From assembly GCF_001677475.2 (NCBI RefSeq), contig NZ_CP015229.1: 64,000 nucleotides of DNA. The stretch is one strand, 5' to 3'. Below are positions 8,458-48,711 of this stretch, in pieces; the first letter of the stretch is position 1; every line of letters starts with the position of its first letter. Below the pieces are notes generated by a model. It was given only the letters and a program-made list of their open reading frames with translations, did not search any database and was not told where the DNA came from. Origin of the DNA: Escherichia coli. Lineage in GTDB: Bacteria > Pseudomonadota > Gammaproteobacteria > Enterobacterales > Enterobacteriaceae. The translations under genes and the position numbers were made by a program.

Positions 8458-8631
8458 GACAAATGAAATTTTAGTAAACTCTTTAAAATCAATGGGTAAA
8501 ATAATTAACATCAAAAATAACGCGACTTTTATCACTTTTTAGTAAAGTTGCACTGGACAAAGCGTACCACAATTGGTGTACTGGTAACCGACACAGCATT
8601 TGTGTCTATTTTTCATGTAAAGGTAATTTTG

Positions 8632-8841
8632 ATGTCTAAGATTAAAGGTAACGTTAAGTGGTTTAATGAGTCCAAAGGATTCGGTTTCATTACTCCGGAA
8701 GACGGCAGCAAAGACGTGTTCGTACACTTCTCTGCAATCCAGACTAATGGTTTTAAAACTCTTGCTGAAGGTCAGCGCGTAGAGTTCGAAATCACTAACG
8801 GTGCCAAAGGCCCTTCTGCTGCAAACGTAATCGCTCTGTAA
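8632..8841 (+). CDS. cspE: cold-shock-domain protein CspE
   Basis: 69-aa ORF from ATG 8632: [33 protein letters not shown]... (RNP1/RNP2 motifs). Confidence 0.95.
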
Positions 8842-8860
8842 GATACGTCAGCAAGAATTC

Positions 8861-8890
8861 AAAACCCGCTTAATCAGCGGGTTTTTTTTG
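8861..8890. terminator. Rho-independent terminator between convergent cspE and crcB
   Basis: Hairpin cccgct/agcggg (8865..8881) followed by a T8 run; A-run on the other side. Confidence 0.7.
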
Positions 8891-10592: not shown

Positions 10593-11558
10593 TTACTTAA
10601 CTTCCATCCCTTTCGCCTGCAAATCGGCGTGGTAAGACGAGCGGACAAACGGACCGCATGCAGCATGGGTAAAGCCCATCGCCAGCGCTTCGGCTTTCAT
10701 TTCGTCGAACTCATCCGGGCTAACGTAACGTTGAACCGGCAGGTGATGGCGGCTTGGCTGCAAATATTGCCCCAGCGTTAGCATCGTCACACCATGACGG
10801 CGCAGGTCGCGCATTACCTCAATAATTTCTTCATTGGTTTCACCCAGACCCACCATCAGACCAGACTTGGTCGGGATTTCCGGATGCGCTTCTTTAAAGC
10901 GTTCCAGCAGCTTCAGCGACCAGTTGTAATCTGCACCAGGCCGTACCTGACGGTAAATACGCGGTACGTTTTCCAGGTTATGGTTGAACACATCTGGTGG
11001 TGTGGCGGTCAGAATATCCAGAGCACGATCCATACGACCGCGGAAATCCGGCACCAGAGTTTCAATTTTGATTTGCGGGCTTTTTTCCCGAATGGCAGTA
11101 ATGCAATCCGCAAAGTGTTGGGCACCGCCATCGCGCAGGTCATCACGGTCAACGGAGGTGATAACCACATAACGCAGCGCCATATCGGCAATGGTCTGCG
11201 CCAGTTTCACTGGTTCATTGGCATCCGGAGCTACCGGGCGACCGTGGGCAACGTCACAGAACGGACAACGGCGGGTACAAATAGCGCCGAGGATCATAAA
11301 CGTTGCTGTGCCGTGGTTGAAGCATTCCGCCAGGTTAGGGCAGGAGGCTTCCTCGCAGACAGAATGCAGGCCATTTTTGCGCATTGCGGCTTTGATGCCC
11401 TGGATACGTGTAGAGTCCGCTGGAAGCTTGATTTTCATCCATTCCGGCTTGCGCAGCAGGGCTTCGCGCTCTGTTGCCACGTTTTTAACCGGGATAAGGG
11501 CCATCTTATCGGCATCGCGGTATTTAACACCGCGTTCCATCACAATGGGTTTACTCAT
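10593..11558 (-). CDS. lipA: lipoyl synthase
   Basis: 321-aa [28 protein letters not shown]... with radical-SAM CxxxCxxC. Confidence 0.95.
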
Positions 11559-11766: not shown

Positions 11767-12720
11767 TCAAAATGCATTACGGATAACATCTATTACCCCG
11801 TGCAGGATGGGATCACGCAGGCTGAATTTGTTGTAGTGGATAGAGAAATCTATTTGCTCCTCATTTAAGGACGGAAAAGGCAGTTTTTCTAGCGGCCAAC
11901 AACGGCTAAACAGGTTATAAAAACGGCTGGGAATAATCGCTAACATGTCACTGTTGGCAACCAGTGCAGCGATTGTCAAAATGTTGTAGCTGGTGAAACT
12001 GATTTGCCGGTCCGGAAACATCTCTTGAACTCTCTGCCGCAGACCGCTGAAATTTTGCCCTTCCGGTAACAGGAGTATATGCGCAGCGTTGTCGATAGTC
12101 TCCCTGTCATCTTCTAAAGAGAGTAGTGGATTTCCCTCACGGCAAATTAACACCATATTGTCGGTGAACAGAACATGATGTTGCACCGTACGATTGGTGC
12201 AAAACATGTTATCGATGATGAGATCGGTTTGAAACTGACTGAGTTGGTTTTCCGCGTCGCTGATGGGCGGGTTGCGCAGTAAAAGCTGCGGATAGTGAGT
12301 TTTAATCGCCCGATAGATGACAGGAAGGACCAGGGCTCCGACCGAGGGGGTGGTCGCAATAGTTATCGTTCGTTGCTTATCATAGCTTCCTTCGATATCC
12401 AGCGCGCCAAGAATGGACTCAAGGCCCTGACTGATATACTCATGTAGATGCATCGCAAATGCGGTAGGAGTGACACCCTGGCCTTTGCGAATAAACAATG
12501 GGTCAGGGAATATAACGCGCAGTTTCTGAATAGACTGACTGATTGCCGAGGGTGTCAGATTAAGCACTTTCGCTGCATTAACGATCCCTTTATGTACATA
12601 TACAGCTTCAAAAATAGTCAGAAGGTTAAGATCAATATTTCGTAAGGTTGTAAATATTTGTGGTTTACCTTCTGACGACTTTCTGCTTAAACAGGTTTCA
12701 ATTTGATTATTACTATCCAC
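11767..12720 (-). CDS. ybeF: LysR-family transcriptional regulator YbeF
   Basis: 317-aa ORF with N-terminal HTH (LNLLTIFEAVYVHKGIVNAAKVLNLTPSAISQSIQKLR). Confidence 0.85.
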   Translation of the reverse strand: MDSNNQIETCLSRKSSEGKPQIFTTLRNIDLNLLTIFEAVYVHKGIVNAAKVLNLTPSAISQSIQKLRVIFPDPLFIRKGQGVTPTAFAMHLHEYISQGLESILGALDIEGSYDKQRTITIATTPSVGALVLPVIYRAIKTHYPQLLLRNPPISDAENQLSQFQTDLIIDNMFCTNRTVQHHVLFTDNMVLICREGNPLLSLEDDRETIDNAAHILLLPEGQNFSGLRQRVQEMFPDRQISFTSYNILTIAALVANSDMLAIIPSRFYNLFSRCWPLEKLPFPSLNEEQIDFSIHYNKFSLRDPILHGVIDVIRNAF

Positions 12721-12979: not shown

Positions 12980-13621
12980 TTAAGCGGTAATATATTCGAA
13001 GTCAGGATTGTTTAGTAGCGCTAAAATATTTTCCAGTAAACGTGGTGCAATATTATTAGTCGTCGCTTCGGGTTTCCATTGTGATATTTTAGCCATTTCC
13101 ATTCCGGCATACCCACAAGGATTAATACGTAAAAATGGTGAAAGATCCATATTGACGTTTAATGCCAGACCGTGGAATGAACAACCGCGTCGAATACGTA
13201 AACCCAGTGAGCAAATTTTCTTTTCCCCGACATAGACACCAGGCGCGTCAGCCCGAGGATGCGCTTCTATACCCAGTTCAGCCAGGGTATTCACCACTGT
13301 TTGCTCAAGCAAGGTCACCAGTTCACGCACACCGAGTTTACGGCGTTTCAGGTTAAGCAACACATACATCACCTGTTGCCCCGGCCCGTGATAAGTCACC
13401 TGCCCACCGCGATCGCTCTGAATCACCGGAATATCACCCGGCATTAAAATGTGCTCCGCTTTTCCTGCCTGCCCTTGAGTGAATACCGGATAGTGCTCGA
13501 CCAGCCAGATTTCATCAAGGGTACTTTCATCGCGGGTATCGGTGAATTCATGCATAGCCTGGGAGATTGGCTCGTAAGGCTGAAGACCGAGCTGGCGGAC
13601 AAGAATTTTATCCTGATACAA
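12980..13621 (-). CDS. lipB: octanoyltransferase LipB; apparent TTG start
   Basis: 213-aa ORF (M)[22 protein letters not shown]...; the first codon, reverse-complement of 13619..13621, is TTG. Confidence 0.9.
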
Positions 13622-13721
13622 AACGGCATCTCCGTGGAGAATGAGTAAAAGTGGGGGAAAAGTATATCACAGCGAGGAGAGGGGAGTTACCCGACCAGGA
13701 GCCGGGTAACGGAGAAGCGAG

Positions 13722-13985
13722 TTACAGAACCATGCGGACAATATCGATTTTGCCCAGTTCTTCATACAGTGTTTCAACCTGCTCGATATGAGTCGCGTTG
13801 ATAGTGATAGATACCGAGTGGTAGTTGCCTTTGCTGCTTGGTTTTACCGTTGGGGTGTAGTCACCTGGCGCATGGCGCTGTACCACTTCAACCACCTGAT
13901 CAACCAGCTCAGGTAACGCCTGCCCCATAACTTTGTAAGTAAAAGGAGTAGGGAATTCAAGCAGTTCGTTAAGTTTGGTTTTCAT
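13722..13985 (-). CDS. ybeD: UPF0250 protein YbeD
   Basis: 87-aa [33 protein letters not shown]... Confidence 0.9.
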
Positions 13986-39457: not shown

Positions 39458-39620
39458 AGAAAAAAGAGGGTAGCAGCGTTAACTGCTACCCTCGAAGATT
39501 GTTACCCAGCGTATTGCGGTTTTCAGGCCCGATGGGGAACGACCATCAGGCGTATAGTCTGTCCGTGCTACGTAACAATCGAGAGGGCTGGAATTTCCGC
39601 CCCTGGTTCTTGTAATTAGT
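39458..39620 (-). ncRNA. sroC: SroC-like sRNA in the gltI-gltJ spacer (GcvB sponge in E. coli)
   Basis: 169-bp spacer; minus-strand hairpin gagggtagcag/ctgctaccctc (39466..39493) followed by a U-run ending about 12 nt before the gltJ start; ends set from position in spacer and recalled ~163-nt length. Confidence 0.55.
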
Positions 39621-48007: not shown

Positions 48008-48082
48008 TGGCTGGGGTACGAGGATTCGAACCTCGGAATGCCGGAATCAGAATCCGGTGCCTTACCGCTTGGCGATACCCCA
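48008..48082 (-). tRNA. glnX: tRNA-Gln (anticodon CUG)
   Basis: 75-nt minus-strand sequence UGGGGUAUCGCCAAGCGGUAAGGCACCGGAUUCUGAUUCCGG...CCA; anticodon loop UUCUGAU. Confidence 0.9.
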
Positions 48083-48119
48083 ACTGGGTGCACTTACGAT
48101 GTAAGCGTCTTGAATAAAT

Positions 48120-48194
48120 TGGCTGGGGTACGAGGATTCGAACCTCGGAATGCCGGAATCAGAATCCGGTGCCTTACCGCTTGGCGATACCCCA
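48120..48194 (-). tRNA. glnV: tRNA-Gln (anticodon CUG), tandem copy
   Basis: Identical 75-nt sequence to 48008..48082. Confidence 0.9.
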
Positions 48195-48242
48195 ACAAAT
48201 TGGTTTGTGAATTTGCCGAACTTATTCGACACATTCAGAATT

Positions 48243-48319
48243 TGGTGGCTACGACGGGATTCGAACCTGTGACCCCATCATTATGAGTGATGTGCTCTAA
48301 CCAACTGAGCTACGTAGCC
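48243..48319 (-). tRNA. metU: elongator tRNA-Met (anticodon CAU)
   Basis: 77 nt GGCUACGUAGCUCAGUUGGUUAGAGCACAUCACUCAUAAUGAUGGGGUCACAGGUUCGAAUCCCGUCGUAGCCACCA. Confidence 0.9.
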
Positions 48320-48334
48320 AGATTGTTTCTTCGA

Positions 48335-48409
48335 TGGCTGGGGTACCTGGATTCGAACCAGGGAATGCCGGTATCAAAAACCGGTGCCTTACCGCTTGGC
48401 GATACCCCA
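48335..48409 (-). tRNA. glnW: tRNA-Gln (anticodon UUG)
   Basis: 75 nt; anticodon loop UUUUGAU. Confidence 0.9.
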
Positions 48410-48443
48410 ATAACCGGGCGGTGAACCGCTTACTCGAAGAAGA

Positions 48444-48518
48444 TGGCTGGGGTACCTGGATTCGAACCAGGGAATGCCGGTATCAAAAACCGGTGCCTTA
48501 CCGCTTGGCGATACCCCA
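48444..48518 (-). tRNA. glnU: tRNA-Gln (anticodon UUG), tandem copy
   Basis: Identical 75-nt sequence to 48335..48409. Confidence 0.9.
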
Positions 48519-48541
48519 TCCGTACAACGCTTTCTGGTGAA

Positions 48542-48626
48542 TGGTGCGGGAGGCGAGACTTGAACTCGCACACCTTGCGGCGCCAGAACCTAAATCTGGT
48601 GCGTCTACCAATTTCGCCACTCCCGC
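48542..48626 (-). tRNA. leuW: tRNA-Leu (anticodon UAG)
   Basis: 85 nt GCGGGAGUGGCGAAAUUGGUAGACGCACCAGAUUUAGGUUCUGG... with long variable arm. Confidence 0.9.
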
Positions 48627-48634
48627 AAAAAAGA

Positions 48635-48711
48635 TGGTGGCTACGACGGGATTCGAACCTGTGACCCCATCATTATGAGTGATGTGCTCTAACCAACTGA
48701 GCTACGTAGCC
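48635..48711 (-). tRNA. metT: elongator tRNA-Met (anticodon CAU), second copy
   Basis: Identical 77-nt sequence to 48243..48319. Confidence 0.9.

Follow-up and report, generated by a model that had tools for sequence, protein, structure and literature searches.

In Escherichia coli K-12, the lipB start codon was reportedly established as a TTG by Jordan and Cronan in 2003. The commonly annotated ATG is said to have given a non-functional protein in that work and the upstream TTG an active LipB, and transfer of octanoyl groups from octanoyl-ACP to lipoyl domains was reportedly described for the K-12 enzyme. The K-12 gene (b0630, UniProt P60720) is the same gene as the one considered here, which lies in a 64,000-nt stretch of E. 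coli contig NZ_CP015229.1 that was analysed as a whole (the window). The neighbours are the same (tatE-lipA-ybeF-lipB-ybeD-dacA), and K-12 LipB is identical to that of the window in its N-terminus (MYQDKILVR), its TTG start and its length (213 aa). The two differ in sequence only at the strain level, and the nearest complete genomes show 99.5% identity across 851 nt.

Parallels extend to other genes and species. In the lipBA operon of Shewanella oneidensis, lipB likewise starts at TTG, 20 nt downstream of a mapped transcription start, and ybeD lies upstream of lipB and is not co-transcribed with it (PMC4398509). In Shewanella, lipB and lipA share a transcript and are regulated by CRP, whereas in E. 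coli ybeF separates lipB from lipA and a predicted CRP site of ybeD does not bind CRP. The validated E. coli TTG starts of rpsT and cdsA resemble that of lipB in that UUG is read as Met, initiation is Shine-Dalgarno-dependent and the start is detected by N-terminomics; the cdsA start, too, had earlier been placed at an internal Met, although both genes are functionally unrelated to lipB. Like lipB, infC (with an AUU start) has a sub-optimal start codon that is conserved across species, but infC is subject to a demonstrated IF3 feedback loop and AUU is much weaker than UUG.

The lipB coding sequence of the window is encoded on the minus strand at positions 12980..13621 (213 codons plus TAA) and is assigned, from the open reading frame list, the sequence and RefSeq, to an octanoyl-ACP:protein N-octanoyltransferase. 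The coding strand opens TTG TAT CAG GAT AAA ATT, translated as M-Y-Q-D-K-I, and the TTG itself is at 13619..13621 (‘caa’ on the plus strand). An in-frame TGA lies 16 codons 5' of the TTG, and from that stop up to codon 23 the TTG is the only canonical start codon (ATG, GTG or TTG) in frame. The initial annotation, which did not state the strand, held that the 213-codon frame opens with TTG and that no in-frame ATG yields a full-length product. Both statements are borne out by the sequence, the second because the first in-frame ATG is codon 23 (13553..13555), from which only 191 aa would be made. It also proposed comparison with curated start sites, and RefSeq/PGAP (E. coli 042) annotates the identical 642-nt CDS, started at the TTG, as lipB. 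As TTG initiates ~3% of E. coli genes, this start is uncommon, not anomalous.

The annotated neighbours within the window are tatE, lipA, ybeF, lipB, ybeD, dacA and rlpA. According to the open reading frame list and RefSeq, the upstream neighbour of lipB is ybeD (DUF493, 13722..13985), and ybeF, a LysR-family regulator (11767..12720), lies between lipB and the lipoyl synthase gene lipA, which has an ATG start (10593..11558); all three are on the minus strand.

Residues K135 and C169 are present in the predicted LipB protein and invariant in 39 orthologues; following established LipB biochemistry, we take these to be the catalytic lysine and the catalytic cysteine that is the site of the acyl-thioester, respectively. 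LipB matches the NCBIfam model NF010922 over residues 2-211 (368.2 bits, cut-off 235), TIGR00214 (279.4 bits, cut-off 83.55) and Pfam PF21948 (115.5, cut-off 27). By these matches it is a member of the lipoyl(octanoyl) transferase family, with its activity assigned by homology. The older TIGR00214 lipB model begins at E. coli residue 26 (coding region 12983-13621 of the window, where residues 1-25 precede the model), and this looks like a legacy of an era in which the internal ATG was annotated as the start; the newer NF010922 model has the wider coverage given above.

An ATG at codon 23 as the true start, giving a functional LipB of 191 aa as in older database annotation, has three points in its favour: ATG is the commonest start codon, this one is invariant (81 of 81 loci in the comparison described below, as a protein residue), and the TIGR00214 model begins close by, at the residue already noted. 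The N-terminal region argues against such a start. In an AlphaFold model of LipB (39 orthologues, mean pLDDT 86.9), residues 6-14 form a strand and residues 16-29 a helix inside the fold, placing Met23 in mid-helix. Initiation at codon 23 would thus delete strand beta-1 and half of helix alpha-1. The solved LipB structures 2qht (Thermus, E = 3e-28) and 1w66 (M. tuberculosis, E = 1e-27) both align from residue 6. Within the segment that would be lost, residues 6-22, R9 is invariant in the 39 orthologues and conservation is 90% or higher at L11, G12, P15, Y16 and A22, and truncation to Met23 lowers the NF010922 score by 28 bits, from 368 to 340.

Direct evidence comes from published N-terminomics (TRAINSPOTTER, PMC13245402), the kind of check that had been suggested for this start. 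Row 127 of Table S1 lists lipB (b0630) with the annotated TTG start and the N-terminal peptide MYQDKILVR; this is the single N-terminus given for lipB, with none reported upstream (PMC13245402). The TTG is also backed there by Ribo-RET, retapamulin ribosome profiling in BL21, and lipB is one of only 10 TTG starts detected (PMC13245402). The finding that, according to the initial annotation, would overturn it, namely a shortened but functional LipB made from an ATG further downstream, is excluded by the combination of homology, structure, N-terminomics and the older literature, the last as reported for the K-12 gene. These four independent lines agree on the TTG as the true start, and the codon-23 start, to which we give essentially no credence, is already refuted. 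Both the start site and the requirement for the first 22 residues of LipB stand as demonstrated, and we found no evidence against the TTG start site. The lipB start is therefore correct, already known, experimentally validated and in that sense ordinary. Its value for annotation is as a textbook case of how choosing the first ATG yields a truncated, inactive protein.

How widely is the TTG kept? Of 5426 complete E. coli genomes, 5424 contain a match to an 851-nt query around the lipB start, at 95-99.5% identity, and 5194 of these share the same 49 nt from the Shine-Dalgarno sequence through codon 8; one variant that was inspected retains the TTG. For a broader comparison, lipB start regions were aligned across 80 species-level genomes, the majority from Enterobacterales and some from Vibrionaceae and Alteromonadaceae. 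Of the 81 loci, 70 have TTG and five have GTG at the codon position of the E. coli start. Departures include two Photobacterium loci in which the TTG is shifted by one codon, one Pantoea locus with an ATG one codon upstream of the aligned start, and Alteromonas, where there is apparently a GTG start further upstream. TTG is the start codon in 46 of the 49 Enterobacteriaceae/Erwiniaceae loci, in which the major allele at fourfold-degenerate sites has a median frequency of 0.50 and a maximum of 0.90. Synonymous sites near the start are saturated, and the codons for Leu11, for example, are spread over CTT (25), CTC (22), CTG (13), TTA (8) and CTA (5). The 81 sequences are phylogenetically related, so that species counts are not independent and overstate the number of independent events. 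Judged from these alignments of related loci, the lipB TTG is conserved far beyond the neutral expectation.

The bases just ahead of the TTG are also conserved. A Shine-Dalgarno core, GGAG, lies 8 nt 5' of the TTG (13630..13633, minus strand), and its positions, -12 to -9, read G in 41, G in 46, A in 39 and G in 38 of the 49 Enterobacteriaceae/Erwiniaceae loci. The GTT that adjoins the start codon (GTTTTG; 13622..13624, minus strand) is as conserved as the TTG, with G, T and T at positions -3 to -1 in 45, 46 and 47 of the same 49 loci.

Beyond these two families, 19 loci carry an in-frame ATG 3-4 codons 5' of the aligned TTG, as in ATG ACT CTT TTG. The genera represented are Pectobacterium, Dickeya, Brenneria, Serratia, Yersinia, Hafnia, Edwardsiella, Budvicia, Photorhabdus and Xenorhabdus (L033, L036-L039, L042, L047, L050, L053-L055, L059, L060, L063, L067, L070, L074, L080 and L081), and the ATG falls at ~2490-2505 in each locus, which corresponds to 13622-13633 of the window. 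The TTG is invariant (19/19), whereas the residues that separate it from the ATG are free to vary; at other leucine columns of the same species TTG is seen in 2/16, 5/10 and 5/19 cases. This pattern suggests that the TTG may still function as a start in these loci. The Enterobacteriaceae counterpart reads GGAG ATG CC- GTT TTG, where the ATG, apparently homologous, is shifted out of frame by one base. In the Dickeya loci (L039 and L042), ~6-17 inserted codons just after the aligned TTG separate the TTG region from the conserved IVRQ strand.

That out-of-register ATG is at 13627..13629 on the minus strand in the window and opens a 61-codon reading frame (13444..13629) in the open reading frame list. 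Initiation upstream of the TTG, either at this ATG, with its upstream or overlapping frame, or at a near-cognate in-frame ATT seven codons upstream, would be in keeping with an ATG placed 8 nt from the TTG and with the in-frame ATG of related families at the homologous place. We nevertheless consider it highly improbable. The ATG is out of frame and abuts the GGAG with zero spacing, it reads ACG in another E. coli strain, E. albertii and others, and the N-terminomics gives no protein beginning there. Because the codon is ACG in relatives, the 61-codon frame is judged non-functional, and it was rejected as a functional uORF on both its spacing and its lack of conservation. The leader further lacks the features of a structured control element: a regulatory RNA was considered and rejected, as the lipB leader returns no Rfam match at E <= 1 and its fold is no better than that of shuffled sequences (z = -0.10). 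A chance Trp-leader match from the Rfam search is located outside the lipB leader.

With translation from the TTG established, transcription of lipB may also be addressed from the ybeD-lipB spacer. An extended -10 element, TGATATACT, lies at 13661..13669 on the minus strand and ends 39 nt 5' of the TTG; it is promoter-like and a putative lipB promoter. Of the 81 loci, 66 have a TATA[AC]T hexamer, which mostly ends 29-42 nt 5' of the start and is preceded by TGn in 37. A sigma-70 consensus scan did not report the TGATATACT -10 element, because it has no good -35 hexamer. Conservation of a consensus match in this spacer suggests that lipB may have its own promoter. Just past ybeD there is a hairpin, GTTACCCGG...TCGGGTAAC, at 13686..13710 on the minus strand. 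The start-region alignment shows the hairpin to be conserved across genera, with apparent paired changes in some (e.g. GTTGCCCGG/CCGGGCAAC). It was not called as a terminator, and since it follows the ybeD stop without a T-run, it is not a canonical one.

One locus of the comparison set, from Citrobacter sp. Cu233 (L007), differs upstream of lipB: at ~2341-2480 the sequence 5' of the lipB Shine-Dalgarno is unrelated to the usual ybeD-lipB spacer and is without the ybeD 3' end, the hairpin and the -10 element. A rearrangement or insertion upstream of the Shine-Dalgarno is suggested from the alignment.

From these elements we propose the following account. The transcript would begin with a probably short leader (~30 nt), made from the putative extended -10 promoter at TGATATACT in the ybeD-lipB spacer. 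With the GGAG core 8 nt upstream, the TTG is read as Met by the initiator tRNA to give the 213-residue octanoyltransferase, and the ATG at codon 23 is an ordinary, invariant internal methionine. Selection may keep the start weak, holding LipB synthesis several-fold below the level expected from an ATG. We consider this account as a whole very probable; within it the TTG start at 13621-13619 is shown, and the position of the promoter and the tuning by a weak start are proposals.

Does the weak start limit LipB? The initial annotation had suggested that it may, relative to LipA, and absolute proteomics agrees with the direction: mass fractions are ~2.9e-4 for LipA and ~4.7e-5 for LipB (Mori 2021, Dataset EV9), from which LipB is ~6-fold lower by mass and ~4-fold lower in moles. 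The abundance difference thus stands, but its cause does not follow from it, because the promoters and ribosome-binding sites of lipB and lipA differ and the ratio is not assignable to the start codon. In favour of such a limit, UUG initiates in reporters at ~10-100% of AUG; against it, the lipA ATG has only a weak Shine-Dalgarno proxy (PMC13245402, Table S1, where the LipA N-terminal peptide is SKPIVMER). A LipB level limited by the TTG relative to LipA is plausible. Start-codon swap data for lipB were not found in the literature searched on its TTG/UUG start.

The TTG could also be the true start without any tuning role: a historical accident, tolerated since little LipB is needed, with promoter strength and mRNA stability as the main determinants of the protein level. 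Several facts fit. LipB is about as abundant as LplA in the absolute proteomics, ybeF divides lipA and lipB into separate units, and a reasonable Shine-Dalgarno (GGAG at 8 nt) could offset the codon, as has been reported for other sub-optimal starts. We find this rather unlikely, however, given the pattern of conservation. The first position of the start codon is T in 46 of the 49 Enterobacteriaceae/Erwiniaceae loci, against a major allele of ~50% at neutral sites; a single T-to-A change would make an ATG, yet ATG is found in only one lineage (L056, shifted one codon); and the TTG persists in all 19 loci that have an ATG in frame 3-4 codons ahead of it. Because selection across the genome as a rule favours AUG and stronger initiation, a conserved TTG at lipB is unusual. 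Some other constraint could account for the conservation; the adjacent GTT is equally conserved.

Returning to the tuning of LipB by its start codon, we tentatively propose that the TTG is kept by selection across Enterobacterales and neighbouring orders as a weak, possibly IF3-sensitive start that caps LipB against a drain on octanoyl-ACP, with the upstream ATGs as decoy or minor starts; we regard this as possible, with real doubt. Were it so, the cap would prevent loss of octanoyl-ACP from fatty-acid synthesis. The comparative addition made here is a modest one, conservation of the TTG, the Shine-Dalgarno and the -10 element across 80 species, and this conservation suggests selection for low LipB dosage.

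Other observations concern the surrounding sequence. ybeF (11767-12720, minus strand) is annotated at a length that matches a GTG start. Matches at the Rfam gathering level elsewhere in the window comprise a cspA-type thermoregulator leader (8531-8889, plus strand), the sRNA sroC (39458-39620, minus strand) and a cluster of seven tRNAs (48011-48711, minus strand), and these are ordinary for this region of E. coli.
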